Positions 8,318 to 57,306 of a stretch of DNA of 62,095 bases are shown here, in pieces; within the stretch, counting starts at the first letter, position 1, and the number at the start of each line of letters is the position of its first letter. Source of the DNA: a virus (taxonomy: Duplodnaviria; Caudoviricetes); IMG/VR virus record IMGVR_UViG_3300005747_000076, positions 1-62,095 of that record. One strand, given 5' to 3'. The notes beneath the pieces are model-generated. The model was not told the origin of the DNA. It worked only from the letters and a program-made list of their open reading frames with translations, and ran no database searches. A program made the position numbers and the translations under genes.

Positions 8318-9226
8318 TTAAGCAGTAGCAATTTGTTTAAATCTTTTTTTCATTTTATTGTGCTTCCAAGATTTATCAATAATGGCTCCTTCCATGCGGG
8401 GAGGTCTTCCTGGTATAAAGCCTTGTGTGATATAGTGCATTACATTTTTAGTATCACTGCTTATTTGTTTCCAGTTCTGGCCTCTTCTATATACTGATTG
8501 ATTAGGAATATGAACCCATAGTTTTGTGCTTTTAACTTTCCATTCTCTATTAAGATACTGAATAAGATTTGCTGTAGGAACATCTATTTCATTATATTTT
8601 TCTTCTTTATCTAGCTTCCACAATTTTACTGTTTTGTTCTTCTCAACAATTGATTTTAGTGTTCCGTTGTTCCAGTGTGAGTTGAGTATATCTGTTGGGC
8701 TTAGGCCTTCTTTAAAGTTATCCCATGTTCCTAGAATTCTGTTAAAGGCCTGAATATTACATTTGAATGTTTTGTTTGTATCCTTACAGTGGAAATATTT
8801 AGAAGGCTCTGAAAAGTGATCTACGCCGCCAACTGCCATATTGTATGTATCTGCATTTAATAAATATGTTTCATCAACAATTTGTCTTTCAGCAATTTCT
8901 GTTTCTTCTTTAGTATCATAAAACGCCATAATATGCTGTTCAAAGTTTTTAATTCCTTTCTGAGCAATCATATAACGAAGTAGAGTTCCGCTTCCAACAT
9001 ATTTTTTAAATTTAGAAATTGATCCTGTATTAATCTTACCCCAGTATTCAAAGCCGTTTGTATTATCAACCAGTTTATATATACAGTGAATTTTTGCGTC
9101 TGCCTTAAGGTTATTATCAAACAACGCCTCAATTGTGTCGCCACATAATGCTCTGTTATTCCAGTATTTTGCGATGTTGTTTGATGATGAACCGAATAGA
9201 ATTTTATTTGTTTTAGATGTCTTCAT
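8318..9226 (-). CDS. Free-standing GIY-YIG (Seg-like) homing endonuclease
   Basis: CIYKLVD...EYWGK...YVGSG...KNF...E...YNMAVGG; start placed at ATG 9226 after AAGGAG. Confidence 0.85.
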   Translation of the reverse strand: MKTSKTNKILFGSSSNNIAKYWNNRALCGDTIEALFDNNLKADAKIHCIYKLVDNTNGFEYWGKINTGSISKFKKYVGSGTLLRYMIAQKGIKNFEQHIMAFYDTKEETEIAERQIVDETYLLNADTYNMAVGGVDHFSEPSKYFHCKDTNKTFKCNIQAFNRILGTWDNFKEGLSPTDILNSHWNNGTLKSIVEKNKTVKLWKLDKEEKYNEIDVPTANLIQYLNREWKVKSTKLWVHIPNQSVYRRGQNWKQISSDTKNVMHYITQGFIPGRPPRMEGAIIDKSWKHNKMKKRFKQIATA

Positions 9227-9353
9227 GTTTTTTCTCCTTAGAACCAATGTTTGTTTTCTTCTTGTTATTTTTTTTGGTTCCTATATCTATATATACTGTT
9301 AATATAGAAAGTTGAAGAAAAAAGTAAATTTTTTTTAAAATATTTTTTTAGTA

Positions 9354-15834: not shown

Positions 15835-16626
15835 ATGCTAGAACACTTAAACAGTAATAAAACTTATGTGCGACTACTACAACAAGAAATAGGAACAACT
15901 GCTGATGGTGTTGCAGGACCTAATACTTTAAAAGCTGCTGAAGAATTTTATGGTAAACCTGTTATTTCACACAATGGTAAATTAATTCCTATTAACTTCA
16001 GTGGAAAAATTAATCACAGTTATAGTTTACATGAATTACCTGATGGAAGTAAAAACTGGTATAGCAGAAAAACTCCTATTGACAATATTGTAGTTCATTG
16101 GGGAGGTTTAAATGCTCCTCATTGTTATCAGGTATTTTTTAATCCAAAATATGCACATACTTCATCACATTTCTTGGTTGGACATAATCCAAAAAGCGGT
16201 GAACTTGAAGTTTTCCAATGCCTAGATACAGCGCAAGTTGCTTATCATGCAGGAAAAGCTAATAAACAATCAGTAGGTGTTGATATTTGCCAGCATCCTT
16301 CAATTAAATATTTAGATAAAACTAAGTCTTGGTATCCAGGTGCTGAAGTAATTACTAATCCTAGCAAACGCGGGCCGCAAGGTGATATTGTTGATATTGA
16401 CCCACAGCTAGCAGAATTTGCAAGAGAATTCCTTAAAGCACTAAGAACTGCAATGGACTTAGATCATAAGCCAGTTTGTGAAGATGAACAAGTTTATAAG
16501 ATTGAAGATGTAAAACAAAGATACTCAATTCTAGGTCATCACAACTTCTCAGTCCAAAAATGGGATGTTATTCCTTGGGCAGATAGATTATATCATGGAA
16601 TAGACGACGAAGAAAATATTTGCTGA
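15835..16626 (+). CDS. Endolysin, N-acetylmuramoyl-L-alanine amidase (Amidase_2) with short N-terminal peptidoglycan-binding motif
   Basis: LQQEIG..ADGVAGPNT; IVVHW, SSHFLV, AYHAG..N..SVGVDI, ILGHH, KWD. Confidence 0.92.
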   Translation: MLEHLNSNKTYVRLLQQEIGTTADGVAGPNTLKAAEEFYGKPVISHNGKLIPINFSGKINHSYSLHELPDGSKNWYSRKTPIDNIVVHWGGLNAPHCYQVFFNPKYAHTSSHFLVGHNPKSGELEVFQCLDTAQVAYHAGKANKQSVGVDICQHPSIKYLDKTKSWYPGAEVITNPSKRGPQGDIVDIDPQLAEFAREFLKALRTAMDLDHKPVCEDEQVYKIEDVKQRYSILGHHNFSVQKWDVIPWADRLYHGIDDEENIC

Positions 16627-17288
16627 TGAATATGGTGCATGATATGACATTATCTATTGAAGAAAAGCATAAGCAAATAAAAGAATACTTATGGGATACG
16701 TGGAAAAATAGCGACAGATACGGTGAATTTATAATTGAATTAGACGATTATGATGTTGAAGGAGCTAAAGAAGTTGGAATTAGACGTTATGAAAACAATA
16801 GAAAAGCTAAAGTAAAAAATCGCAAACTATCTAATAAACCTATTAATGGCCATGAAAGAGATATTTTAGGTGCTTGCGGTGAATTAGCAGCTATTAAGTG
16901 GCTTAAGAAAAACGGATACGAAGCTTCATTTGAAAAATTCCACAATGTTAATAATATTTCAGGTGAAAATGATAAATTTGATACAGATATAGTATTTGAT
17001 GGAAAAGAATTAACAGTTGAAATTAAAACAACTGAAAAACCTTTAAATAGTAAATTAATTTATCCACTTCACAAAGGTAAGAAACAAAATCAGCCTGATA
17101 TATTTTTACTAGTATGCCAGATAGATAGAAATAGGCACGTAATAAAAGGTTTTACAACAGCAGAAAATGTATTAAATAATATAGATGATGATTTACCAAC
17201 TAAGGCATATTCAATACACGAAAAAAACCTTTCAGCAGATTTAGACAAAATAATTAATGAAATTTTATTAGGAGAAGAAAATGAGTAA
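16620..17288 (+). CDS. PD-(D/E)xK nuclease-like protein
   Basis: GACGELA...DTDI...VEIKT. Confidence 0.65.
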   Translation: MLMNMVHDMTLSIEEKHKQIKEYLWDTWKNSDRYGEFIIELDDYDVEGAKEVGIRRYENNRKAKVKNRKLSNKPINGHERDILGACGELAAIKWLKKNGYEASFEKFHNVNNISGENDKFDTDIVFDGKELTVEIKTTEKPLNSKLIYPLHKGKKQNQPDIFLLVCQIDRNRHVIKGFTTAENVLNNIDDDLPTKAYSIHEKNLSADLDKIINEILLGEENE

Positions 17289-17460
17289 TTTACAACTAGA
17301 TAATGAACAAATTAAAGCAGTTAATATTCTTATTGCTGCAGCTGGTGTAGCACAAAAAGCTGGTGCATTTAGCCTTGAGGATGCAAAAACAATCTTTCAG
17401 GCAATTAAAACACTAGCTCCTGAACAAGAAGTTGAGAAAAAGGAGGAAGTTAGCGCATAA
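17281..17460 (+). CDS. Small helical protein (59 aa, absent from the ORF track)
   Basis: AGGAG RBS; MSNLQLDNEQIKAVNILIAAAGVAQKAGAFSLEDAKTIFQAIKTL...; followed by a terminator. Confidence 0.85.
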   Translation: MSNLQLDNEQIKAVNILIAAAGVAQKAGAFSLEDAKTIFQAIKTLAPEQEVEKKEEVSA

Positions 17461-17503
17461 TAATTTGAATTCCTTTTTTATGATTGATTAATGTTAACAT
17501 AAG

Positions 17504-17534
17504 AAGCTGTAAATCCCCACTTACGGCTTTTTTT
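17504..17534 (+). terminator. Intrinsic terminator
   Basis: AAGCTGTAA/TTACGGCTT stem plus T-run. Confidence 0.8.
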
Positions 17535-17577
17535 GTGCCTAAAATTAGTAATTATAAAAAGTTATGGCAGTAAACAC

Positions 17578-17615
17578 AAAAAAACCTGTCCATATATTTT
17601 AATATAAACAGGTTT
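17578..17615 (-). terminator. Intrinsic terminator (large loop)
   Basis: AAACCTGT/ACAGGTTT stem plus U-run on the minus strand. Confidence 0.65.
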
Positions 17616-17659
17616 AAGATTTAACAGAGATAATTCTGGTGTTTGTTGCCTATATTAAA

Positions 17660-17944
17660 TTAACAGGCACATCCTTCATCTTCACAGTCAGGATCTTCAC
17701 AAGCTTCTGGCTCCATATCCATTTCTTCTGGCATCATTTCGCCTCCTTCTTCTGGCATTTCCATATCCATTTCCATACCAGCTTCAGGCATTGCCTCTTC
17801 ACCAGCCATTTCTTCACAGCCTTCTTCCTGCTCCATAACACATTCAATGCCTGCAACAGGATCTTCTTCTTTTTCTTTCTTTTTACCTTCACATGCAACA
17901 AACAATGATAAAGATAACAATAAAACGGTTAATAGTCTAAACAT
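17660..17944 (-). CDS. Acidic low-complexity lipoprotein
   Basis: Signal peptide ending LFVAC; E/M/G-rich body; Cys-rich tail. Confidence 0.8.
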   Translation of the reverse strand: MFRLLTVLLLSLSLFVACEGKKKEKEEDPVAGIECVMEQEEGCEEMAGEEAMPEAGMEMDMEMPEEGGEMMPEEMDMEPEACEDPDCEDEGCAC

Positions 17945-18013
17945 AACAATTCCCTTTCTAATTTTAGTATTCTGTTATATGACGTATATTATATATGATT
18001 TTTACAAAGATTT

Positions 18014-18514
18014 TTAATCATTATTTTCTTTAGGCAACCAATTTTTAATATCTGTATGTAATTCAACCTCGTCAGGAGTTTGGCGCCTTATAATTTCTTT
18101 ATCTTTGAATATAGATAATTCAGTAATCATTGCTAACTGAAGATCACTTATTTGGTCTCTTAATATTTGTAATTGAATTTGACTATCACGCAATCTACTA
18201 ATTAATGCTTGCCTATCAGCATTTGCAACTGCTAATTTTTCCTTTAGTTCTTCTATTTCTGCAGGATCTCTGCCTGCTGCAATTGCTATCATACTGCCTA
18301 TTGACCCTGTTATAGTTCCTAAAACACCTACAACTATATCTCTATTATCAGGATTTATAGGGACAAATGCTAGAAATAAAATCATTAATATAACAAATCC
18401 AAGAAAAACTACTGAAAATACCCATCCTTTACGTGCTTTTTCACTTTGAGTAAATTCTTTTACTTTCTTTTTTACTTCTTCTTTTTCTTTCTGTTGATTA
18501 CTTGGGTCATTCAT
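18014..18514 (-). CDS. Two-TM membrane protein with C-terminal coiled coil
   Basis: Two hydrophobic helices then heptads; ATGA-coupled to the cyclase. Confidence 0.8.
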   Translation of the reverse strand: MNDPSNQQKEKEEVKKKVKEFTQSEKARKGWVFSVVFLGFVILMILFLAFVPINPDNRDIVVGVLGTITGSIGSMIAIAAGRDPAEIEELKEKLAVANADRQALISRLRDSQIQLQILRDQISDLQLAMITELSIFKDKEIIRRQTPDEVELHTDIKNWLPKENND

Positions 18515-19383
18515 TTCTTTAAATCCTCTATAGTAATTTTAATAATATGTTTAACAAAATCAAATATAACATCAATCCATTCAAAAGGTCTAAGAATTAA
18601 ATAATCTATATTCCAACTTTGTTTTGCATAAGGATCACTTAACAGAGGCCATAATATCCAAAGCCAAGCAAACATTACAATAAATCCAATACGCCAGAAA
18701 AAATATTCAACTATTTCAATAATTCTTTTATTTCTTAACCTTACTCTTACTTTTCCTTTTCCACCAATCCTTTTACTTTTCTCGCTATCAGGCGGAGGCT
18801 GTAGTTGTGCTTCAATCAATCCCATTGCATAAACTTGTTCAGGCTCTGAAACACCTTTGAATTTATATAATCCAACAAATACACTTAATGCATTTTTAGG
18901 AATGTGTATATTTCTTTTCTTTCTTTCTTTAAATTTCATCATTGCAGAATGTGATAGTAATATTTGTTCTTCTGCACATAATGACATAATACGCGCAGCA
19001 ATGTTTTTTCCTAATCCATCAATATTAATACGCTTCGCACCGCCTGAAACTAAACTTTCTGCAGTTTTAGTTATAGTCATTTTATCCCAGTGTATACCTA
19101 TTCTGCTCCTGAAAGGAAATTTATGAACTCTTAAATATTTCTTATAGGCAAATGCAAATGCAACAGCGTCATGCACTGTTCCAAAATACATTAAAGTTCC
19201 ATCACTTGCGTCAATCCATTGTCCATTATGTTTAGTAATTAATGACATTACAACTTTATCATGTGTGCTAAACCATTTTGCCGCTGTTCTAGATCCGTGT
19301 TTTTGCACAAACTTCGTGCTCCCAATAATGTCTGTTATGACTATTGCTATCCAGTCATCAACCATTTCTTGTGGCATCCCCAT
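18511..19383 (-). CDS. Class III nucleotide cyclase with C-terminal TM helix
   Basis: AIVITDIIGST, SDG, RIGIH, NIAARIMS, QILLS, FKGVSEP. Confidence 0.92.
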   Translation of the reverse strand: MGMPQEMVDDWIAIVITDIIGSTKFVQKHGSRTAAKWFSTHDKVVMSLITKHNGQWIDASDGTLMYFGTVHDAVAFAFAYKKYLRVHKFPFRSRIGIHWDKMTITKTAESLVSGGAKRINIDGLGKNIAARIMSLCAEEQILLSHSAMMKFKERKKRNIHIPKNALSVFVGLYKFKGVSEPEQVYAMGLIEAQLQPPPDSEKSKRIGGKGKVRVRLRNKRIIEIVEYFFWRIGFIVMFAWLWILWPLLSDPYAKQSWNIDYLILRPFEWIDVIFDFVKHIIKITIEDLKK

Positions 19384-19395
19384 ATTATTTTTCCT

Positions 19396-19677
19396 TTATG
19401 TAGGTTTAATATGTATCGTGCATTTACAGTGTTTAGCAATATTTAAACACATTGGACAAGGGCAATTATCTGTAGGCCATTTACATTCTGTTGCTAATAT
19501 ATTACATGGACACTTTTGAATTGTGCAAATACAATCAACTTTTCCACATAATGCACATACTGTTGGGTCATCCCAATTAGTATTTTCAGGAGACCAATCA
19601 TATAAAGTTTTACTCGGGTCAAACGAAGGAGGATTAACTTGTTGTGGGGGAATTAAATGTTTATTTTTTCTTTTCAA
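19396..19677 (-). CDS. Cys-rich metallothionein-like protein
   Basis: 12 Cys in about 50 residues; GAGGAG RBS before a TTG start. Confidence 0.75.
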   Translation of the reverse strand: MKRKNKHLIPPQQVNPPSFDPSKTLYDWSPENTNWDDPTVCALCGKVDCICTIQKCPCNILATECKWPTDNCPCPMCLNIAKHCKCTIHIKPT

Positions 19678-19725
19678 GTGAAATCTCCTCAGTTTCTATT
19701 AATTCATTTAAGTCTTCACCCTCAC

Positions 19726-20025
19726 TTACTTTTTTTTTAATTCATCCAGCTCTTTTTTAAGCTTTTGATCTTCTCTATCAAATATCTCCACGGCTGAATG
19801 TAAATATTTATCCAAACTTGATTGCCCAATGACATACCCAATTGTAAGTGCTGAAGATGATACGACCATAGCAAGTAATATTGACATTTCATATAAATCA
19901 ATTGTGCCAATATGTGTTATAAGCCAGCCCATCAAGCCTTTTGTAGTAAGTTCAGCTATTAGATAAGCCAAAAACTTTTTACTTTGCATAGGCTTACTGC
20001 CATCTGCTGTTGGTTTGTTTGTCAT
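19726..20025 (-). CDS. Putative holin
   Basis: SKKFLAYLIA start, two TM segments, charged C-terminus, at the end of the tail operon. Confidence 0.6.
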   Translation of the reverse strand: MTNKPTADGSKPMQSKKFLAYLIAELTTKGLMGWLITHIGTIDLYEMSILLAMVVSSSALTIGYVIGQSSLDKYLHSAVEIFDREDQKLKKELDELKKK

Positions 20026-21932
20026 AATAAATTCCTTTGTGGTTCAACATAAATTTCTTCTGCAGGTGCAATTTGTGGATTAAAATAAGTTCCAAAAACG
20101 CTATTACAACGTTGATATAAATAAATTTTATCATCTATGTTTGCTGCTAGCATTTCCATAAAATTAAATCCTCTATTAGTATCATTACTAACATCTTCTT
20201 CGCCATTTAATGCACTAATAAACATATCAAATTGTATAAAGTTTCTATCAATAAAACTATCAATACCTTTAAAGCATGTTCTTTCAAATCTTATATGGAA
20301 TTTTCCGTCTTGATCTCTAAAAATAATCCAAGGTAATATTTCAATTTCTACATCATTTACATTTGAGTTTTCAAATAATTCTGCAGTTTCTTCATCCATT
20401 CCGTTCCAGTATGTGCATCCATAACTATCTAACTGATAATTTCCGTTTCCGTTATTATCAATAAATCTATTTTTAATGAAGTAGAATTTTTTATTTATTC
20501 TGCATAATCTTTGAACATGTGAACAATTTAAACTATTGTTTCCGTAATCATAAATTACACCAACATTAGGCTGATAAGATGTATCATTATATGCTAATCC
20601 AACTGCCCACCTATCAGCTGCTCCTAACTCATTAGGGAAAACTCTAAATTCAACATCATTTCCTTTAAGTCTTACAGGAAGATTTAGTTTTTTAAATATC
20701 TCATAAAAATATTCAAATATAACACGTGTTAATTCTCTTTCACCGTATTCAATTCTGTTAAATGCTCTTTCCCACTGTGTTTGACTAACTAATTCAGGTT
20801 TTACAAAGCCAGTATTTAATAGTTTGTAAAAATTCTCAATAACTGAAAAATCAAAATGGTCTGTATGCAGTCGTGTTCCTTTATATATAATAGGATTTTC
20901 AATACTATCAGTTAAAACAGCGTCTTCATGCGGAGGAATTTGATCATCACCTGCATAGATTTTTGGATTTTCTAAATCATGTTGCCTAGGACCTTTTCCA
21001 CTAGTTCTTACAAGTTTTTTAAGTCCAGTTAAGAAATGAATATTCCTATCAGTTCCTCTACCAACTGCTTCATATTCATATTCACCATTTCCTATTATAA
21101 TTCTGCCTCCAGCTGGATTTAAACCTAATGAAGTTTCAATATAAAGTCTATCATCACCTTTATTCCAGTCTTGAGTAATAATTGTGTATGAGTTATTGTA
21201 AAGATTTTGTAAACCTTCACCTACTGCCTGTAGTAAATAACTCCAATTGCTATCTTGTCCTTTAATATAACCTTTACTTGCATCATATGCGTCAGTTCTT
21301 TCACCCGCATCCCAAAAGCTAGGTAAATTATGGCGCAAACTCATTGTTTTATCAAATCTTAATCTAGTTATAACTTCAAAATCTTCTAATTCAATAGGCT
21401 TATAAATTCCAAATCCATTAACTATAGGCTGAAGTTGTAATCTATAATTACCTTTTGGCATAACAGGAGTTGTAACTAATAATTCATCTTGCTGAGAATT
21501 TGTAAAACAACGATGTCTAAGATTAGGAATTGAAGATTGACCTAGGAAATATGTATCTGTTAATTCATCATTTTCGTCTAATAAAATAAATTTCAACTGA
21601 AATGGGCCTAATGGATTACCTGGAGTAGCATTATTTCCTGCTCTAGATATTAAATTTCTTATACTACTAAAATCTCCATGTATTCTTATTATTTCTCCAC
21701 CATTATCTGCTAATTTTTTGTAATTAGGAGGAATACCGGGAGGTGTTTCAATACTAATTGAAGGTTTTAAAAAAGGATCACCATGGCCAGTTTCTGCAAT
21801 ATTAATATAATCATTACTATTTACTGCCAATGGCCAAGGTGCACCAAAACCTGCGTCTCTCGGTGGAGCATCGCCACTAAATGTTGGTGAACCAAAACCT
21901 ATCTCGACGCCATTAAATCTTATTTCGGCCAT
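20022..21932 (-). CDS. Virion tail/baseplate protein
   Basis: 636 aa; position in the tail module. Confidence 0.6.
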   Translation of the reverse strand: MAEIRFNGVEIGFGSPTFSGDAPPRDAGFGAPWPLAVNSNDYINIAETGHGDPFLKPSISIETPPGIPPNYKKLADNGGEIIRIHGDFSSIRNLISRAGNNATPGNPLGPFQLKFILLDENDELTDTYFLGQSSIPNLRHRCFTNSQQDELLVTTPVMPKGNYRLQLQPIVNGFGIYKPIELEDFEVITRLRFDKTMSLRHNLPSFWDAGERTDAYDASKGYIKGQDSNWSYLLQAVGEGLQNLYNNSYTIITQDWNKGDDRLYIETSLGLNPAGGRIIIGNGEYEYEAVGRGTDRNIHFLTGLKKLVRTSGKGPRQHDLENPKIYAGDDQIPPHEDAVLTDSIENPIIYKGTRLHTDHFDFSVIENFYKLLNTGFVKPELVSQTQWERAFNRIEYGERELTRVIFEYFYEIFKKLNLPVRLKGNDVEFRVFPNELGAADRWAVGLAYNDTSYQPNVGVIYDYGNNSLNCSHVQRLCRINKKFYFIKNRFIDNNGNGNYQLDSYGCTYWNGMDEETAELFENSNVNDVEIEILPWIIFRDQDGKFHIRFERTCFKGIDSFIDRNFIQFDMFISALNGEEDVSNDTNRGFNFMEMLAANIDDKIYLYQRCNSVFGTYFNPQIAPAEEIYVEPQRNLL

Positions 21933-22040
21933 TTACAATCTCCTGTTTTAATTCTGTTTAATTTGTTTGATGTCTTTATATATATACTCCAATTTACTGC
22001 AAAGATTAATCTGGAGTATATTCTCGTTATTGATATGATA

Positions 22041-24497
22041 TTAAGCGTGTAGCTTTTCACAATCAAATGAAATAACTATTCTTCTATCGTCTCTATTCAA
22101 AGCAGGAATATCTGTGCAAACTATTCCTAAGTATTCTCCAGCTAAAAGCGAAGTTGTTGTATATTGTGAAGATTGAGCTTGGCCAATAACATTATCTACT
22201 CCTGATGAGTTTGTTATTGTAAATGCACTTCCTACCTGCGTCCAAGTATTTGAAAGAGCATTAGCATCACTAGTTGCTTTAACAAGACTGAAAGATAATG
22301 TTAGGTTTCTCATTTCACCAACATGAATATGTGTTGCCTTCAAATCAATAGTTGTTCCTGTATTGTTTTTAATCCAATACATACAAGCTTGTTGATTGCC
22401 AGAGAATATTAAGTTTCCACTTACATCAAAGCTTCCCTCTTCAGTAACTTCTCTAGAAACGTGTGTTGAATAAACAATTCTTTCTTTAACAGCTTCAAAC
22501 TCAACTTCAACATCTCTACCTGAAACAACAGTTGTTCTTAGAAAGTCTCCAACAGATGGAGCGCTTACCATTGCAGGAAGTTTGATTGAGTTGTTATTAG
22601 AAAGTTTTGCACTGTTTGATAAAATCTTTTGTGTTGCAATAGCTCCTGCACCTGCCTTAAATTCCAATGAAGCTTCACCACCACTTGCAACGCTTTCAAT
22701 AATAACATTATCTGTTAAATTTCTAATGCTACCTGAAACTACACCGTTTTCACCTGCAGTAAACAATAAACTTCCAGCAGCTCCATCATCATTTATAAAC
22801 GCATAATCCTGCATTATTTGCTGGCCAGCAACTGTTAAATCACCTTCAACTCTTACGTCATCATAGAATTGACCATCATAAGCATAAATCTTCCTAACAC
22901 GATTTGTTGAAGTTCCAACATCATAAGCATTAGTTGTAACTGGGATTAAATGTGATGATGTATTAACTTGCCAGTTTGCTGCAACAAATCCACCACTTCC
23001 ATCTGCCAATTGTATATCTCTAACATCTCCAACTGAAGAAGCGCCTGCATTAGCTTGAACTAAATCATTAATAGCAGCTGCAGTCATAATAGAAGTATCG
23101 CTATCAGCAAAAACATCAGCTGAAGTTATTAAAGCAGTTGAGTCAATGTGTGTAGTATTAATATCACTTGCCACGAGTGTAACAGATCCTGCAGTTCCTC
23201 CGCCAGAAAGTCCACTTCCAGCAATAACTGCTGTTATATCACCTTCACCTGCAGTTAATGTTTCTGTTACCCAATTTGTTCCATCCCATTTAACAAATCC
23301 GTTTGTAATTAATGTAGTATTATCAACTGAAACTAGATCTTTAGTTATTCCTCCATCTGCAACTCTCATTACACCGCCAGCGCCCATAGAAATTACACCG
23401 TTTTCCATATCAATACTATCAGCTGAAACATATAATTCATTCCAACGTCTGTCAGGATGTCCTAAATTAATTCCTTTATTTGATACAGGTGAGAATGCAA
23501 AAATACCACCAACTTGTAATTCTTCATCAGTCCATTCATAACCCATTTGAGCAAATTGATTAGAACCTTTTTGCCAGTTAATTATACCAACTGTGTCTAT
23601 CTCTTCGCTTGGAGTAAATGCTTCATCCTTAATATTTAATGTAATACCATTAGTAAACCTATAATGATGATATGGTTCCCATATTTCATTTATTCCATCC
23701 CATCTTAATCTGTCGTCGTCTTCTGGGTCTCGTGTATAAGAAACATCACTTAAAACTGAAACGCTTTCTCTTTTCATTTTAATTAATGCTCTATCTTCAA
23801 CAGCTTTAGCTAATTCATTTGTTCCGCCAACATCTATACCTGGTATACCTAATGTTAGGCTATCATTAATAGCATCTGTAAGAAAATCTGGTCTTATAAC
23901 ATACTGAGGAACATTACCTAATGCTAAATCACCTACTCCGAACGTCGCAGTATCATAATATCTACCTTCTGCAATGTCTTTAATAGATGCTAACTGAACC
24001 ATACCACTTACTCGTGTTGTTCTATCAGGCTCATCATCTTTATTTGCAAATGGGACAGAAGCAGAGCTTTCAATTGTATGATTTGATAACCAATCAACAA
24101 CTTCCCAATATTCATCTTGCCAGTTTCTTTGGCTTCTAGCAGGTTTTTTTAGGCTTGTTCTAGCATGTGAAACTACAATATCACAAAAATGTGAATTAGG
24201 TGCCTGAAGTGGATCTTCTTCACTGCTTTCACCTGTATCTGGATTAGTTGCGATACAGAATAGACGAACTGTTCCCCATGTATCAATAATGCCTGAACAT
24301 ACTCTGTTAGTAGGGTCTTCAATAGCATAAGTGCTGCCTGGAGGATTATCTATAATAGTCCAACTATAATTAAAATCATTTACGGATCTTGTAGGCTCCG
24401 AACTATCTGCCGCAGCAGCTGTAATACTTACGGGCTGAGGTAAATCTACCTGGCTTATCCCGAAGTTATTTGAACTCATTGTTAGTGTAATTGCCAT
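22041..24497 (-). CDS. Tail fibre or receptor-binding protein
   Basis: Ig-like N-terminus and fibre motifs (LRWDGINEIWEP, GDITAVIAGSGLSGGG, INLGHPDRRWNELYV). Confidence 0.75.
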   Translation of the reverse strand: MAITLTMSSNNFGISQVDLPQPVSITAAAADSSEPTRSVNDFNYSWTIIDNPPGSTYAIEDPTNRVCSGIIDTWGTVRLFCIATNPDTGESSEEDPLQAPNSHFCDIVVSHARTSLKKPARSQRNWQDEYWEVVDWLSNHTIESSASVPFANKDDEPDRTTRVSGMVQLASIKDIAEGRYYDTATFGVGDLALGNVPQYVIRPDFLTDAINDSLTLGIPGIDVGGTNELAKAVEDRALIKMKRESVSVLSDVSYTRDPEDDDRLRWDGINEIWEPYHHYRFTNGITLNIKDEAFTPSEEIDTVGIINWQKGSNQFAQMGYEWTDEELQVGGIFAFSPVSNKGINLGHPDRRWNELYVSADSIDMENGVISMGAGGVMRVADGGITKDLVSVDNTTLITNGFVKWDGTNWVTETLTAGEGDITAVIAGSGLSGGGTAGSVTLVASDINTTHIDSTALITSADVFADSDTSIMTAAAINDLVQANAGASSVGDVRDIQLADGSGGFVAANWQVNTSSHLIPVTTNAYDVGTSTNRVRKIYAYDGQFYDDVRVEGDLTVAGQQIMQDYAFINDDGAAGSLLFTAGENGVVSGSIRNLTDNVIIESVASGGEASLEFKAGAGAIATQKILSNSAKLSNNNSIKLPAMVSAPSVGDFLRTTVVSGRDVEVEFEAVKERIVYSTHVSREVTEEGSFDVSGNLIFSGNQQACMYWIKNNTGTTIDLKATHIHVGEMRNLTLSFSLVKATSDANALSNTWTQVGSAFTITNSSGVDNVIGQAQSSQYTTTSLLAGEYLGIVCTDIPALNRDDRRIVISFDCEKLHA

Positions 24498-24511
24498 TTG
24501 TGTATGTCTCC

Positions 24512-41522: not shown

Positions 41523-43034
41523 TTATTTAGAAACGTTGCGAAGAACGAAGTTCTTCTTAGCAACCTTAACGGAAGGTGCACCGAAAAGCATGAGGAGGAA
41601 TTGCTTCGCAGCACCAACCTCAGCAAGAGGACGACGAATAAAGTCAAGGAGTCGTGCAAATTCCACAACGCCCGCATCAAGCTGAGTAATAAGAACTTGA
41701 TCACAGTCGAGTCTCTCAAATCCAGCGTCGTACCAATCAGCTCCGATAATCTCAGAAGCTTTAACTTCACCAATTAGTTGTGCTGCGCGCAATACTTCAC
41801 CATCAGATGCTGCATCACTCTTAGCTGCGCGGTATACGCGAACATAAAGTGCAGATCCATTCGCCATTGCGTTAAGTTGGAAACGAGGAACAGCGTCATC
41901 ATGTGCATCAACAGCAGCTGAAATTACTGGTGCGCCGTAGCCTTTTTTATTAACAGGAACGAATACGTATCTAAATTCACCATCATGACCAGCACCGGTG
42001 CCAGATGCGTCCCAACCATTTTCAATACCAAATACAGCGTCAGCAGCAAGGAATTGAGCAGCTGTTTGTGTATCCTCAGTTGCAAGGCCGTTAGCAACCA
42101 AATCTGCACCTGCGCTAGCAGCTGAAGGAGGAGCTAAACGACGTGAGATAAATGGAGCAGCTACTACAGGAACAGGCCCCATAGGTCCCATAATATGAAT
42201 GCGAGGGCCAGCGCCAAGAGTATGAACACCTTGATCACCTTGGTTAACGAGAACCATAGAGTCATGGCGACCATTTTGTGCACTATCTGCAATCAATTTG
42301 CTGTAAGCTTTAGGAGACATGAAGATTGCATCAGGATTACCAAAGCGAGGAGCTGAGTAAAGCTCACCAAGAACTTCATGGAGTTTCTGGCCTGAAAGTG
42401 ATGCACCTTGCATATCTTCCTGGTGTTCACTAAAGCTACGACCGAATTGGTATGGGTTGCGATCAGTGTCTAGATCACGCTCAATTTGCTTAAGAACACC
42501 ATCAAAAGCAAGACCATTTACATCTTCATCACCGTGGAAAAGTTGAACTTCCATTTTACGAAGAAGGCTCATTGTGCCGCGCTCGGTCTCCTCAGCAAGT
42601 GCGTCAGCGTTAGGACCAACGATACCAACAAGAGTAGAAACATCAGAGATGCTGCGTTTCTCGGCCATATATTTAATTTTAACTGATTTTCTCTCATACT
42701 GTGAAGCAGAAGAACCGAAGCTGCTGTCGCCGCCACCTTCAGCAATAAATGGATCAAGGTCCTCACCGTGGCTACTAATAACTGCATACTCATGTAGAGT
42801 GTTTGTAGCTTGGATCTTAGGCATCATAGGCCAAAGCGCAAGGTCGCGCATTGTATGTGCTGCAGAAGCAAGAGTTCCTTCAATTGACTGAGGAACGATA
42901 GGAGACAAAGGACCACGAAGATCATTGCCAAGTGCATCAGTTGCTTGATAGCCTACATTGCTGTTTTTGCGAAGAGACTCATTTAGACGGGTTAATTCGT
43001 TAATAGTAACGTTTTCATTGATATTAGGTAACAT
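41523..43034 (-). CDS. Major capsid protein (SPO1/Twort-like)
   Basis: PQSIEGTL, TLHEY, YERKSVKIKYMA, LFHGD..LAFDGVLKQI. Confidence 0.92.
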   Translation of the reverse strand: MLPNINENVTINELTRLNESLRKNSNVGYQATDALGNDLRGPLSPIVPQSIEGTLASAAHTMRDLALWPMMPKIQATNTLHEYAVISSHGEDLDPFIAEGGGDSSFGSSASQYERKSVKIKYMAEKRSISDVSTLVGIVGPNADALAEETERGTMSLLRKMEVQLFHGDEDVNGLAFDGVLKQIERDLDTDRNPYQFGRSFSEHQEDMQGASLSGQKLHEVLGELYSAPRFGNPDAIFMSPKAYSKLIADSAQNGRHDSMVLVNQGDQGVHTLGAGPRIHIMGPMGPVPVVAAPFISRRLAPPSAASAGADLVANGLATEDTQTAAQFLAADAVFGIENGWDASGTGAGHDGEFRYVFVPVNKKGYGAPVISAAVDAHDDAVPRFQLNAMANGSALYVRVYRAAKSDAASDGEVLRAAQLIGEVKASEIIGADWYDAGFERLDCDQVLITQLDAGVVEFARLLDFIRRPLAEVGAAKQFLLMLFGAPSVKVAKKNFVLRNVSK

Positions 43035-48820: not shown

Positions 48821-49022
48821 TGGTAGTTTACTCTTTCTAAGTTATGTTTTATAAAAGTTTATGGGCTCCGCCTCCCATACTCCCCTAAAGGGGCCACACC
48901 ATTAAAAATGGGGTATCTCATTTAACTTCTGTTTAACTTTTATTTTTAATCAATGGATTTTTATAGAAACTCTTTTTAAATTTATCTGGAGTTAATCTGG
49001 TAATCCACTAATTAAATATAAC

Positions 49023-52000
49023 TTAGAAACCAGTTATTGCTACGCGCTTCCATGTATTAGATGCTGTGCAAATATATAGGAAGCCACTATCAAAGCGAAG
49101 ATCACCTGCAGTTCCTGTGTCAGTGCCTGAAAGAGGAGCTGAACCACCCATTCTCATCGCACCAATCAAGTTGCCGTTAGCTTCAACTGTTCCTGCCTCA
49201 ATATCCGCAAAAGCAAATCCTGCATCGCCTGTATCAACAGTAGTTGTAGGCTCCGAAGTAGCAGTAAATGCTTTGAATTTGTCGTCGGTCTCATCAAATG
49301 CAAATCCGCAGAAGCTAGAAGTATTGCGTTGTGAATAGAAACCATGATCAACTGCAGATGTATTATTAACACCAAGCTCGATAAGTGTATCGGAAAGTGA
49401 TAAGTTAGCACCTGATGAAATGATTTGGCCTGAAATTACTGCGCTTCCAAGAATAGAAGCACCGCCAGTAATAGTAAGATTACCACCAGCTTCAAGGTTG
49501 TTTGTAACAGAAACGTTAGAAGGAAGACCTACAGTATAAGTTCCACCGCTTTGTGCAACTTCACATTCATTCGCTGTTCCTTGAATTGTAAGAGTTCCGC
49601 CAAGAGCAACATCACTTGAAGTAGTGCCATCAGTAAATGATAGGTGATCATTCAAAATCATGCTGTTTTCTACTGCATCAGGTGCAATAGTAATAGCAAT
49701 GTTTGTGTCCCCTGTTCCATCAAATGAAGCACTACCTGCAGCATCACCACTAATTTGGATATTTCGTGCTGTTTCCAAAGCTGTTGCAGTTGCAGCATTA
49801 CCAGTTGTATCACTATCAATAATTGCCTCAAGTGCAACAGTAAGTTGATTAGCAGCTGCTGAGTATGAAATATCAATATCTTGGCCACTTACAAAATCAA
49901 CGTCGGAGCCAAGAGTAATATTTTCTTGTGCAACTCCATCAACCTTAAGTCCCCAATGGTCGTTAGCAAGTTTGGTATTTTGAATACTTCCAGTTTGAAT
50001 AACTGGAGATAACTGCACGTTCCCGGTGCCATCAAAACTAACTGATCCAGCAACAATTTCAGTTGAAGCCATATTAAAGTTTCTAGAAGTTTCTAGAGCA
50101 GTAGCAGTAGAAGCATTACCTGAAACATCAGCAGTAATTGTAGAAGGAAGGCCAATAGTGAAATCATTATTTAATGAAGACCAAACAACTTCAACTTCAT
50201 TGCTTGTTCCCTTAATTTCAAATTCACCACCAAGTGAAATAGCTTCAGAAGTAACACCATCACCAACTGAAATTGTGCTATTAGTAAGTTTACTGTTAGC
50301 AACGCTTCCTGCTTGGATAGAAGGAACTAATACTACGTTTCCTGTTGCATCATAAGAAACTGCAGAAGCAACGATTTCACTAGAAGAAATACTAAAGTCT
50401 CTTGCTGTTTCCTGAGCAGTAGCTGTAGCAGCGTTTCCTGTAGTATCTGCAGTAAGAATTGAAGGAAGATTATAGGTAATCTCATTATCAACAGCTGAAT
50501 AACTTAGAGTTAAATCACCACCCTTAGCAAATTTAAGTGTTGAACCGAGAGGACGATCATAATCTACAGAGTCTACCTGAATTACTAATTTATCATTTGC
50601 CAACATGTCGTTTGTAATTTGATCATCAGCAATAGATGTTGTAAGACTAACGTTCCCCGTTCCATCAAATGAAACTGCAGCTGCTTGAACTGGACCTGAA
50701 CCAATGCTAAAGTTGCGTGCTGTTTGTAGTGCAGTTGCTGAAGAAGCATTGCCAGTTAATTCAGCAGCAATAGTATCAGGTAAGCCAATAGTAAATGTGC
50801 CAGCTGAATAACCAACTTCTACTTCGCTACTTGTTCCTTGAATTACAACGTCGCCACCTAGTGCAATATCACTAGAAGTAATTCCATTGCCAAATCCAAT
50901 ATCACTATTAGTAAGTTTAGAATTAGCAACGCTGCCTGATTTCAATGAAGGTGCAAGCTGAACGTTTCCAGTTGCGTCATAAGATACTGCAGCAGCACTC
51001 ATCTCTGTTGAGTCAATGCTAAAGTCTCTAGCAGTTTCTTGTGCAGTAGATGTAGCTGCATTGCCGCTAGTATTTACGTTAATTGTTGAAGGAAGGCTGA
51101 AAGTAAGATCATTATCAACTGCGCTGTAAGAAACAGAAACTTGTGAAGCAGTTCCGTTAAAGTCTAGTTTTTCACCTAATTGGACTCTTTCTTGTGAAAC
51201 ACCATCAACAAAAATATCTAGTCCATTATTTACCATCATTGAGTTTTCAACAGAAGCTGCTTGAATTGTAGAAACGATGTTAGCATTTCCTGTTCCGTCA
51301 AATGAAACAGAGCCTGCAACGTCGCCGCTCAAAGAAAGAGTGCGAGAAGTTTCTAATGCAGTTGCTGTTGAAGCGTTTCCTGTAAGTGCACCAACAAAGC
51401 TTGTAGCAGAAACAGAAGAGAGTCCTGAAACGTCTGTTGCGAGTGATGCTGTGAAAACACCGTCAGTATAACCTATTTCAATTTCATCGTCGGTGCCATT
51501 AATTTGTAGAGATTGGCCAAGTTGGCGCTCTGTAGAAGTAACACCATCACCAAATGTAATACCTGGGTTAATCATCATTGAGTTAGCAACTGAAGAAGGT
51601 TGGATTGTTAAATCAACAGCACTTACATCAGCTGATCCGTCAATTGAAAAACTACCTTCAACATCACCACCTGTAAAACTAACAGTGCGTGCAGTTTGGA
51701 AAGCTGAAGCTGTATCAGCATTACCTGTCATATCACCAGTAATATCACCTTCAATATTAGCAACAATAACTGCTTTGTTTCCTGCAGAAAGTGTAGGAAC
51801 TGTAGAAGTAGGCTCTGTTGCTAAATCTTTAAATAGATAAAACTTCCCATCATCAGCATCACGGAAAAGCCCGTGGTATTTGTCGCTTCCATCATTTGAT
51901 AAACCATAAAAACCGATGTCAATTGCATCGCTGCTGTTATCTTTAGCAAGTTTAATGAGTGGATCAGTTGCTTCTACTGTTGAAACTGAAAGTGCTGTTT

Positions 52001-52154
52001 GAGTTCCAGTAACTGTTAAATTACCTTGAATTTCAACATTACTTGAGAATGTTCCTGTCTCGGCTTGAATATCTCCAATGTGAGCTGTGCCCCATTTCTT
52101 GGAAGAAGAGCCAAGATCATGGCCTTTATTTGTATTTGGTCTTAATGCAGACAT
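49023..52154 (-). CDS. Repeat-built virion fibre protein
   Basis: Seven ~105-aa GNA..A.A..TAR repeats; C-terminal GTAGDLRFDSGFLYICTASNTWKRVAI fibre motif. Confidence 0.85.
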   Translation of the reverse strand: MSALRPNTNKGHDLGSSSKKWGTAHIGDIQAETGTFSSNVEIQGNLTVTGTQTALSVSTVEATDPLIKLAKDNSSDAIDIGFYGLSNDGSDKYHGLFRDADDGKFYLFKDLATEPTSTVPTLSAGNKAVIVANIEGDITGDMTGNADTASAFQTARTVSFTGGDVEGSFSIDGSADVSAVDLTIQPSSVANSMMINPGITFGDGVTSTERQLGQSLQINGTDDEIEIGYTDGVFTASLATDVSGLSSVSATSFVGALTGNASTATALETSRTLSLSGDVAGSVSFDGTGNANIVSTIQAASVENSMMVNNGLDIFVDGVSQERVQLGEKLDFNGTASQVSVSYSAVDNDLTFSLPSTINVNTSGNAATSTAQETARDFSIDSTEMSAAAVSYDATGNVQLAPSLKSGSVANSKLTNSDIGFGNGITSSDIALGGDVVIQGTSSEVEVGYSAGTFTIGLPDTIAAELTGNASSATALQTARNFSIGSGPVQAAAVSFDGTGNVSLTTSIADDQITNDMLANDKLVIQVDSVDYDRPLGSTLKFAKGGDLTLSYSAVDNEITYNLPSILTADTTGNAATATAQETARDFSISSSEIVASAVSYDATGNVVLVPSIQAGSVANSKLTNSTISVGDGVTSEAISLGGEFEIKGTSNEVEVVWSSLNNDFTIGLPSTITADVSGNASTATALETSRNFNMASTEIVAGSVSFDGTGNVQLSPVIQTGSIQNTKLANDHWGLKVDGVAQENITLGSDVDFVSGQDIDISYSAAANQLTVALEAIIDSDTTGNAATATALETARNIQISGDAAGSASFDGTGDTNIAITIAPDAVENSMILNDHLSFTDGTTSSDVALGGTLTIQGTANECEVAQSGGTYTVGLPSNVSVTNNLEAGGNLTITGGASILGSAVISGQIISSGANLSLSDTLIELGVNNTSAVDHGFYSQRNTSSFCGFAFDETDDKFKAFTATSEPTTTVDTGDAGFAFADIEAGTVEANGNLIGAMRMGGSAPLSGTDTGTAGDLRFDSGFLYICTASNTWKRVAITGF

Positions 52155-52351
52155 ATTTTTTACCTTTCATTGTGCAATCTATGTGCGATTTTAATTGTTT
52201 TGATTAAATCTATTTAGACGCATACTATAAAATCTTAGTATAATTTATTTTATTGAATATTTTGATGTCGTAAAGGAGAACATTAAAGTCCTCCTCTTAT
52301 TATATATTCACCAATATTTCTTTTTTCAAAGAATTGATGAAATATTTTTAA

Positions 52352-56911: not shown

Positions 56912-56937
56912 TTTTTACTTGTCCTTTCTTTCTTTAA

Positions 56938-57306
56938 TTAGTCTTCAATAAAACCAACGTATAATTCAACGTCTGTTGCTGCAACGTTAGTAAAGGTTAA
57001 TTTTAAAGCATCAAATACTGGATCTGCATCTTTTCTTCCAATCAATACAACATCAACACCTGCATCTGCTAATGCACCTTCTTGTGAAATGAAAGGTAGG
57101 AAAAAGTCGCTGTCTGCGCCTGCTGGTCTAAAATCAACCTTAAATTTTCCTGCTGCATCGTATGAATTACAAGCAATTTGTGCTTTTGTGAACTGTTGGC
57201 TTGGATTAAAACCAATGTTTCCTGCATCTAATGTAATTGATAGTTCATTATTACCATCTTTATCAGCTGCTTCTAAAACAAATCTTCTTACTTTAACTTG
57301 TGCCAT
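56938..57306 (-). CDS. Putative virion protein
   Basis: Start at ATG 57306 after GAAAGGA; first gene of the fibre operon. Confidence 0.7.
   Translation of the reverse strand: MAQVKVRRFVLEAADKDGNNELSITLDAGNIGFNPSQQFTKAQIACNSYDAAGKFKVDFRPAGADSDFFLPFISQEGALADAGVDVVLIGRKDADPVFDALKLTFTNVAATDVELYVGFIED

Follow-up and report, generated by a model that had tools for sequence, protein, structure and literature searches.

To our knowledge, cyclic-nucleotide signaling in phage biology is known mainly as a weapon of the host, deployed in CBASS, Pycsar, Pucsar and type III CRISPR systems. Phages respond with nucleases and sponges that destroy or bind the signal. In class III nucleotidyl cyclases, two positions specify the base, with a Lys and an Asp (K/D) in adenylyl cyclases and an E/C-type pair in guanylyl cyclases. 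The accessible part of a study on the Pycsar cyclases assigns base choice to other residues, namely Y50, D94 and R97 in BcPycC and F100, R142 and Q144 in EaPycC (PMC11224242). Pycsar and Pucsar effectors are described, in the available portion of a preprint, as cyclic nucleotide-binding domain (CNBD)-TIR or three-transmembrane (3TM) proteins (10.64898/2026.08.12.744502), and the available text of a third source reports adenylate cyclase genes beside curli (type VIII secretion system, T8SS) genes in uncultured marine pelagiphages (PMC9599517). Here we analyze a phage cassette that pairs a class III cyclase with a membrane protein of two helices. It lies in the IMG/VR record IMGVR_UViG_3300005747_000076, and "the window" refers to that whole stretch of 62,095 nucleotides, a 62-kb viral record estimated to be ~41% complete.

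The minus strand of the window carries a series of tail-module genes whose last members are five short genes, followed by a stem-loop:

19726..20025, minus strand: TM99, a small membrane protein of 99 aa with two hydrophobic helices
19396..19677, minus strand: Cys93, 93 aa, TTG start, 12 Cys, without a signal peptide
18511..19383, minus strand: cyc290, 290 aa, a class III nucleotidyl cyclase homology domain, a transmembrane helix and a tail
18014..18514, minus strand: TMcc166, 166 aa, a hairpin of two transmembrane helices and a long helix
17660..17944, minus strand: lipo94, 94 aa, a predicted lipoprotein with an LFVAC lipobox
17582..17615, minus strand: a terminator-like stem-loop, a 14-pair stem and then the T-run TTTTGTGTTT, which closes the minus-strand gene string

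The initial annotation had placed four co-oriented genes exactly at 17660-19677 and described each of them correctly, but it missed the fifth, TM99. As it had also noted, the stop of cyc290 and the start of TMcc166 overlap in an ATGA (18511-18514). The start of TM99 overlaps the stop of an upstream 636-aa tail-module gene by another ATGA, and the remaining gaps in the cassette are 12-69 nt, with purine-rich ribosome-binding stretches. We see an even chance that this locus encodes a phage-owned cyclic mononucleotide (cNMP) module at the inner membrane, consisting of a membrane-anchored class III cyclase and a coupled coiled-coil protein with two transmembrane helices.

A class III cyclase with an intact catalytic set

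The catalytic domain of cyc290 spans about residues 10-205. Its AlphaFold2 model, built on 30 homologues (pLDDT 87.3), was compared with the PDB by Foldseek and matched the domains of Rv1900c, Ma1120 and CyaB at E 5e-12 to 1e-10 with target TM-scores of 0.79-0.91; for the Rv1900c cyclase domain the TM-score was 0.88-0.91. The model also superposes on Cya2, CyaC and soluble guanylate cyclase, the whole list of matches running from E 5e-12 to 1e-9. The family profile reaches the PDB by sequence as well (Ma1120, E 7e-10; Rv1900c, E 8e-8), and a word-indexed search found 320 cyclase homologues at E<=0.001. Because so many homologues accompany a Foldseek match of E 5e-12, the similarity to cyclases is not due to chance.

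The catalytic motifs can be read directly from the translation as TDIIGST (D18), SDG (D61) and NIAAR (N127 and R131). HMMER alignments match D18 and D61 to the metal-binding Asp pair of Ma1120 and Rv1900c. N127 and R131 align with the His and Arg of Rv1900c (HIGAR) and with the Asn and Arg of trypanosomal GRESAG4.1, GKNIAAR lying opposite TPNMAAR, and K176 is a conserved Lys in a C-terminal KG motif. Among 156 distinct family sequences, D18, D61, R131 and K176 are each present in 156, D58 in 155 and N127 in 142. The invariance of the first four residues is the pattern expected from purifying selection on catalysis. We conclude that cyc290 is a real class III cyclase-fold protein with its conserved catalytic set of two metal Asp, Asn/Arg and Lys intact.

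The canonical base-specifying pair is absent. D58 occupies the Lys position, aligning with the Lys of Ma1120 (VVKSQGDG) and an Asn of Rv1900c, and N120 occupies the Asp position, aligning with the Asp of Rv1900c (GTDVAG). Over the 156 sequences, position 120 is N in 132, S in 8, A in 7, E in 7, G in 1 and T in 1. Judging from these residues, the Asp58/Asn120 pocket disfavors the canonical contacts to adenine and could suit guanine, uracil or cytosine, with ATP also possible. Since the residue at the Lys position is acidic, GTP or a pyrimidine nucleoside triphosphate is at least as likely a substrate as ATP. Sequence alone cannot settle the product of cyc290, because the Pycsar cyclases, in the accessible part of the study cited above, choose their base with other residues.

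Hydropathy marks a single transmembrane segment at 221-239, within a helix of about 221-243. The 17 residues ahead of this helix hold a mean of 8.5 Lys or Arg (K/R) across the family, which predicts a cytoplasmic catalytic domain and a tail in the periplasm or the membrane. The tail is ~45 aa long and carries conserved WP..LS and W..DY..L.PFE.ID motifs. The initial annotation had called a class III cyclase with a C-terminal transmembrane helix, intact metal Asp and NxAAR, and base-specifying positions that match neither K/D nor E/C, and it was right in each of these respects.

The cyclase is co-inherited with a two-helix membrane protein

An alignment-based scan of IMG/VR yielded 36 loci with 35 full cyclase genes, 29 of them distinct. 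Searching the open reading frames (ORFs) of these loci with a hidden Markov model (HMM) detected TMcc, the family of TMcc166, in 32 of the 35 viral cyclase loci. It is adjacent to the cyclase or overlaps it in 25 loci, and in the other 7 it lies on the same strand but 1.3-3.9 kb away, with opposite-strand genes in between. The three loci without TMcc have 204, 1,092 and 1,650 bp of DNA left after the cyclase. A metagenome scan seeded with a cousin protein, P0122 (~44% identical to the window cyclase), gave 12 loci, of which 11 have a short cyclase, full or cut by the contig end, and one (L048) has a large multi-domain relative. In this cousin clade, TMcc directly follows the cyclase in 8 of 11 (E 1e-71 to 1e-83), and the other 3 contigs end <=154 bp past the cyclase stop. 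The total is thus 40 of 46 loci, with all 6 misses on truncated contigs, and on these grounds we take the cyclase and TMcc to be the invariant core of the cassette.

The gene context of this core varies. Tail genes surround it in the window and in closely related phages, which agrees with the initial annotation's placement at the end of a late operon for this phage and its closest relatives. That placement fails for L013, L016, L020, L022 and L023, in which the cassette sits among replication and nucleotide genes for helicase, PhoH, nudix, dCMP deaminase, thymidylate synthase and SSB. Because the linkage survives such rearrangement, the cyclase and TMcc appear to form a functional unit; the cyclase is strictly co-inherited with TMcc across phages with differing flanks. 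TMcc also evolves more slowly than the cyclase. The other genes follow the pair to different degrees, with TM99 in 34 of 35 cyclase loci, Cys93 in 23 of 36 and an acidic lipobox protein directly after TMcc in 10 of the 32 TMcc-bearing loci. The neighbors are conserved with the cyclase, a check that the initial annotation had named.

Hydropathy places the transmembrane segments of TMcc166 at 35-53 and 60-78, and the AlphaFold2 model has helices at 5-50, 58-79 and 84-132. The protein begins with a basic N-terminus and a strongly hydrophobic first helix, followed by a 7-residue loop with an invariant N-R. The second helix is rich in small Gly/Ser residues, with G63, G66 and G70 invariant. After it come a GRDP break and helix 84-132, the best-conserved part, where L/I/M residues recur at a spacing of 3-4 from I87 to F136 in a coiled-coil-like pattern (read from the sequence), and then a short tail with an invariant W159. 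Mean column identity in the TMcc alignment (A2) is 61%. TMcc proteins carry 5.2 K/R in the flank before the first helix, compared with 1.3 in the loop, so both ends are predicted to be cytoplasmic.

TMcc166 matches no named family above threshold. Its best matches, all sub-threshold, are AbrB at E 9.7e-05 (Pfam/NCBIfam), PADLOC at E 0.0087 and the PDB at E 0.92, the PDB profile search giving a single chance coiled-coil match (E 0.9); the Atlas holds it in unnamed viral clusters only. SLATT models score E 0.058 (Pfam) and 0.012 (NCBIfam) against the window protein and reach E<=0.1 in 14 of 26 TMcc homologues (best E 0.0046), all below threshold. AbrB membrane models match 16 of the 26 and CyanoTRADDas_TM matches 6, again sub-threshold. 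Since the AbrB models match as often as SLATT and nothing rises above threshold, all of these matches may be compositional. A complex prediction for the cyclase (alignment A1) with TMcc166 (A2) gave a score of 0.00 and a mark of 0.32, which says nothing for or against binding.

Distribution and wider clade

Among the 120 homologues listed from the word-indexed search, identity is 53-67% and length 261-324 aa, and all are metagenomic; 18 of these 120 bear the JGI name "class 3 adenylate cyclase". An exhaustive search of representatives found 1,849 proteins at E<=0.001. Beyond a few cousins of the same length, the representative matches are N-terminal domains of large proteins, fused to STAND/AAA and TPR, to a Ser/Thr kinase with TPR or WD40, or to a transmembrane helix and PEGA. 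The best named model for cyc290 is NCBIfam TIGR04510, "putative peptide modification system cyclase" (E 4.3e-34, residues 13-205). The match covers only profile positions 7-204 of 814 and scores 118 bits against a cut-off of 400; by this score, far under the family cut-off, cyc290 is not a TIGR04510 member.

The wider clade has its own signature, D-D-K/R-D-E-P-R-K. In 155 aligned representative rows, Asp58 occurs in 147, Lys/Arg59 in 147, Glu120 in 138 and Pro127 in 103, and Asn at position 127 occurs in just 5, all from the phage family or its nearest cousins. A FastTree phylogeny of 177 catalytic domains, from which rows with <150 aligned residues were dropped, groups 30 phage sequences with two same-family representatives (support 100) and next joins the phage family to three Asn-bearing cousins (support 99); lacking a canonical outgroup, the tree is silent on direction. 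Bacterial relatives such as P0135 and P0148 are ~400 aa long and consist of the domain, a transmembrane helix and a PEGA domain. Because such relatives exist, the phage enzyme may have taken over its membrane-anchored architecture from a cellular form.

Pattern scans with the cyclase (A1) and TMcc (A2) alignments across one genome per bacterial or archaeal species found no relative, although distant ones could be missed. Searching 50,697 cultured-phage records by tblastn with the cyclase and with TMcc gave no match. Viral contigs scanned with one protein at a time (the window cyclase, P0122 or P0124) also yielded nothing, and the alignment-based scan was needed to find the family. A fold search of BFVD recovered other viral class III cyclases, from giant viruses and two "uncultured Caudovirales" entries, none of them characterized; a 287-aa phage entry aligned poorly (TM-score 0.35). 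Our searches of the searchable literature turned up no publication that deals with this family, with TIGR04510 or with class III cyclase modules encoded by phages, the tree tips of the Pucsar preprint not having been compared. As far as searched, the cyclase-TMcc pair appears to be restricted to viruses.

Accessory proteins

Relative to the cyclase, TM99 can lie downstream or, on either strand, upstream. In the P0122 scan it accompanies just the two main-family cyclases, those of L045 and L047. The alignment (A3) shows an invariant PxxSKKFxAY near the N-terminus and a charged C-terminus. No family in Pfam, PHROGs, PADLOC or NCBIfam matches it, and the Atlas places it in unnamed viral clusters only. 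TM99 is holin-like or, by a possible analogy with the small Imm protein of T4, Imm-like in size and shape only.

Cys93 always lies just upstream of the cyclase where the HMM detects it. Its Cys pattern is CxxC..CxC..CxC..CKWP..CxCxxC..CxC, with 9 Cys columns invariant in the alignment (A4) and 4 more at >=90%. Searches of Pfam, PHROG, NCBIfam and the PDB gave no match. The pattern suggests that Cys93 is likely a cytoplasmic zinc protein, perhaps a zinc-binding accessory subunit.

The N-terminus of lipo94 reads MFRLLTVLLLSLSLFVAC. Of the 76 aa in its mature part, 31 are D/E (41%), 11 are Met and 6 are Cys, with Met-rich MEMDMEMPEE runs. The sequence is of low complexity, which explains why BLAST returned no match, and equivalents in other loci were called by position, lipobox and composition. 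A second lipoprotein family, ~80 aa long with four conserved Cys (SEKK..ECEQIKDIVTDCLGLHRGA...SCG...C), recurs in loci without the acidic lipoprotein, and L039:914-1153 encodes a similar Cys-bearing lipoprotein directly upstream of the cyclase. In one subclade, a protein of 89-103 aa with 8 Cys (CWRYNCPG...YCS.KC) and a strongly basic C-terminus follows just after the module; from its sequence it may be a zinc-finger nucleic-acid binder. The loci are as follows:

L003/4, L005, L007/8, L012, L020, L021, L031, L036: acidic lipoprotein after TMcc, by lipobox and composition
L014, L016, L017, L023, L025, L027, L028 (-): second lipoprotein family, 4-6 kb from the cyclase
L013:9149-9460, L021:8591-8887, L026:6338-6607, L031:8522-8809: 8-Cys basic protein

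Two loci, L027:14224-14556 and L028:14225-14605 (both minus strand), encode a metallothionein-like protein, 110-126 aa long, that is rich in Met and has 18-19 Cys. The complete 162-kb relative L020 carries, at 1103-2218, a 371-aa protein resembling adenylosuccinate synthetase (phrog_1211, E 1.7e-56). If this enzyme is of the PurZ type, the DNA of that phage might contain a modified adenine.

Genome setting

The structural module of the window is that of a myovirus, with terminase, portal, protease, major capsid, sheath and baseplate wedge genes. Among the 50,697 cultured-phage records, the nearest counterparts of the major capsid protein come from SPO1-like, Thermus and Pseudomonas phages and are only 26-31% identical to it. 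With identity of 31% at most, neither a cultured relative nor a host can be named. A blastn search of window 17000-24500 against cultured phages gave no match, and a look-up of sequencing runs found DNA runs only, the best with a 0.39 share of the sampled words.

A plus-strand endolysin operon converges on the stem-loop. It consists of an Amidase_2 gene (15835-16626, E 1e-9) and two conserved small genes: a 222-aa protein (p222; 16620-17288, plus strand) that starts within the amidase stop region and matches phrog_18407, of no known function (E 1.9e-4), and then a 59-aa protein (p59; 17281-17460, plus strand). The trio is kept in L003/4, L007/8, L012 and L036 and may be part of a real lysis unit; this operon contains no transmembrane holin. 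Elsewhere in the window, a GIY-YIG (SegE-like) homing endonuclease lies amid small genes of unknown function (8318-9247, minus strand; phrog_314, E 3.8e-12; PF19835, E 2.6e-5). GC content has a background of ~0.30, rising to 0.46 at 42001-43000, inside the major capsid gene, and to 0.36-0.41 over 49001-57000, which covers a 1043-aa tail-fibre-like gene and a 1519-aa coiled-coil-rich gene.

A proposed membrane module and its alternatives

In the model that we favor, the cyclase would form homodimers at the inner membrane, its catalytic domain facing the cytoplasm, and would make a 3',5'-cyclic mononucleotide during infection. The ATGA overlap would keep production of TMcc in step with that of the cyclase, and the two proteins would lie side by side in the membrane, TMcc acting either as regulator of the cyclase or as its output; as an output, its glycine-rich second helix suggests a gated membrane lesion. 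The three small genes for TM99, Cys93 and lipo94, the last a probable periplasmic lipoprotein, would extend the pair in this phage as clade-specific additions. The module may serve a decision that the phage takes at the membrane, for example when to lyse the host or whether to exclude superinfecting phages, and not the metabolism of the host at large. These roles are suggested by the placement of five products at the membrane, by an endolysin nearby in some lineages and by the glycine-rich helix, and they are the weakest step of the proposal. A bolder version, which we consider rather unlikely, is that marine phages of one clade operate a second-messenger circuit of their own at the host inner membrane: the Asp/Asn-pocket cyclase would make cGMP, cUMP or cCMP, and the nucleotide, directly or via Cys93, would gate a glycine-zipper lesion formed by the two-helix protein, thereby timing lysis or excluding other phages. 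If true, Pycsar-like logic would have evolved in, and be used by, a virus rather than its host.

Several results weigh against the proposed module. The match of cyc290 to PF00211 is sub-threshold (16.4 bits against a gathering threshold of 21.9; E 0.0068), and only 2 of 30 family members match this model at E<=0.01; the cousins P0122 and P0124 pass it with 32.1 and 29.7 bits. The hairpin bearing the second metal Asp is one residue shorter than that of Ma1120. The transition-state Asn, N127, is replaced by Ala or Ser in 14 of the 156 family sequences, and because most of the wider clade has Pro at this position (103 of 155), catalysis across the whole lineage is uncertain. No recognizable nucleotide-binding domain was found in TMcc166. 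A search for the PF00027 cNMP-binding domain, which hit 11 of 14 control genomes, detected none in the cassette, among the scanned window ORFs of >=90 aa or in any of five related phage records, two of them complete (162 and 240 kb). Finally, the neighbors of the cassette are of early type in some phages and late in others, giving no consistent timing.

Four other explanations could account for parts of these data. The cyclase could be an ordinary cAMP synthase that drives CRP-type regulons to reprogram the host, its neighbors being unrelated small membrane genes kept by synteny. The JGI name on 18 of the 120 homologues listed, the absence of a detected phage-encoded receptor, which fits a host receptor, and the adenylate cyclase genes beside curli genes in pelagiphages (PMC9599517, in its available text) all point this way. 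We nonetheless regard it as unlikely, since the adenine Lys is a near-invariant Asp (155 of 156) and the Asp is Asn, Ser or Ala; the coupling to TMcc outlasts rearrangement and 56% cyclase divergence, which plain synteny does not explain; and five related records contain no CsgG, so the context is not that of curli. The locus could also be a lysis cassette, with TM99 as holin, TMcc166 as i-spanin, lipo94 as o-spanin, the convergent amidase as endolysin and the cyclase as an embedded regulator or a passenger. A transmembrane coiled-coil gene followed by a lipoprotein gene mimics a separated spanin pair; the Amidase_2 endolysin converges on the cassette; and an acidic lipoprotein follows TMcc in ten loci. 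Muralytic genes also lie near TM99 in two relatives, a transglycosylase-like gene being one gene away in L020 (TM99 upstream) and ~1.7 kb downstream of TM99 in L013, with amidases ~6 kb from the cyclase in both. Yet L016, L022 and L023 have no muralytic gene within 7 kb, and there TM99 heads an operon that includes the helicase. The predicted cytoplasmic coiled coil of TMcc, where an i-spanin needs a periplasmic one, the occurrence of TMcc with the cyclase in 40 of 46 loci, compared with a lipoprotein following TMcc in just 10 of 32, and the lack of any holin or spanin family match for TM99, TMcc166 or lipo94 make this explanation quite unlikely.

The remaining two concern what the cyclase domain does. 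It could be a pseudo-cyclase, its palm domain serving a membrane complex as a nucleotide-binding or scaffold module or carrying out another nucleotidyl transfer. The Pro in the nearest large clade, the 14 phage-family sequences without Asn and the shortened metal-Asp hairpin count in its favor, as does the fact that the nearest clade is named only as a "putative peptide modification system cyclase". Against this, the two metal Asp, the Arg and the C-terminal Lys do not vary in any of the 156 family sequences, and Asn127 marks only the phage family and its closest cousins (5 of 155 representatives), so that lost or altered chemistry strikes us as improbable. Alternatively, the phage could carry an abortive or exclusion system of the Pycsar/Pucsar type, in which the cyclase senses a rival phage and the cNMP opens a membrane-disrupting effector with two transmembrane helices. 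Here the pairing of a cyclase with a transmembrane protein matches the Pycsar/Pucsar layout in the available part of the preprint (10.64898/2026.08.12.744502), PADLOC detects PycC at E 4e-6, the second helix of TMcc is glycine-rich, and SLATT and CyanoTRADDas_TM give sub-threshold matches in 14 and 6 of 26 TMcc homologues. But the SLATT matches are below threshold and maybe compositional, given AbrB in 16 of 26; the soluble part of TMcc is a plain helix, without a PycTM, PycTIR or cNMP-binding match; the family is nearer TIGR04510 than PycC; and the genes lie in lytic-type phage genomes, not in bacterial defense islands. We judge an exclusion system of this kind, an idea that overlaps with the bolder version above, to be unlikely.

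Returning to the membrane cNMP module, the sequences suggest that hundreds of related phage genes probably encode an active membrane-bound cyclase tied to a novel partner with two transmembrane helices. Should the enzyme prove active, the writing of cyclic-nucleotide signals would extend to phages, and would take place at the very membrane on which the outcome of lysis and superinfection is settled. Pfam barely detects the family (2 of 30 members), which is for that reason undercounted in virome annotation. Its Asp/Asn base pocket offers a natural test of substrate choice in class III cyclases, and the pair is small (290 + 166 aa), making it practical to express and assay.

Comparison with known systems

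Like the pelagiphages with adenylate cyclase genes, as these are described in the available text (PMC9599517), the phages studied here are marine and uncultured and carry a gene annotated as adenylate cyclase. We considered a link to curli and rejected it, as there is no CsgG in five related records and no curli gene in the window. The two-component spanins offer a second comparison. An i-spanin has a single N-terminal transmembrane segment and a coiled coil in the periplasm; TMcc differs in having two hydrophobic helices joined by a 7-residue loop and a predicted N-in/C-in topology.

Ma1120 and Rv1900c share with cyc290 their fold (target TM-score 0.85-0.91, root-mean-square deviation ~2 Å), the metal Asp pair, the Arg and a C-terminal KG...P motif, at only 20-23% identity. 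Set against the minimal mycobacterial cyclases, the phage enzyme has Asp for the adenine-specifying Lys and Asn for the Asp, a metal hairpin shorter by one residue, and a C-terminal membrane anchor and tail, and its family is found in viruses only, as far as searched. The TIGR04510 clade is closer in having Asp at the Lys position (147 of 155 rows) and, in some relatives, a transmembrane helix right after the domain. The phage protein lacks the TPR, STAND or kinase part of that clade and has Ala/Asn at position 59 where the clade has Lys/Arg, Asn120 for Glu and Asn127 for Pro. Because of their STAND fusions, our guess is that these relatives may be the cyclases that the Pucsar preprint, in its available part, describes as "immune clade 1".

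The analogy with Pycsar that the initial annotation had drawn proves to be weak. Both systems combine a class III-type cyclase with a small membrane protein, and in both the base-recognition residues depart from K/D, as judged for Pycsar from the accessible part of PMC11224242. However, the PADLOC PycC models match cyc290 only at E 3.9e-6 (24 bits), and the solved uridylate cyclase 8jsz matches the family profile at E 0.48. No PycTM or PycTIR model in PADLOC matches the cassette, and the phage partner has no cNMP-binding domain. With no cNMP-binding effector found and with TIGR04510 as its nearest named model, the cassette does not appear, by sequence comparison, to be Pycsar. It differs further in that the cyclase itself is membrane-anchored and in its setting among sheath, baseplate, portal, capsid and terminase genes of phage genomes instead of bacterial defense loci. 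We conclude that the cassette is a new, virus-restricted variant of the theme of a class III cyclase with a membrane partner.

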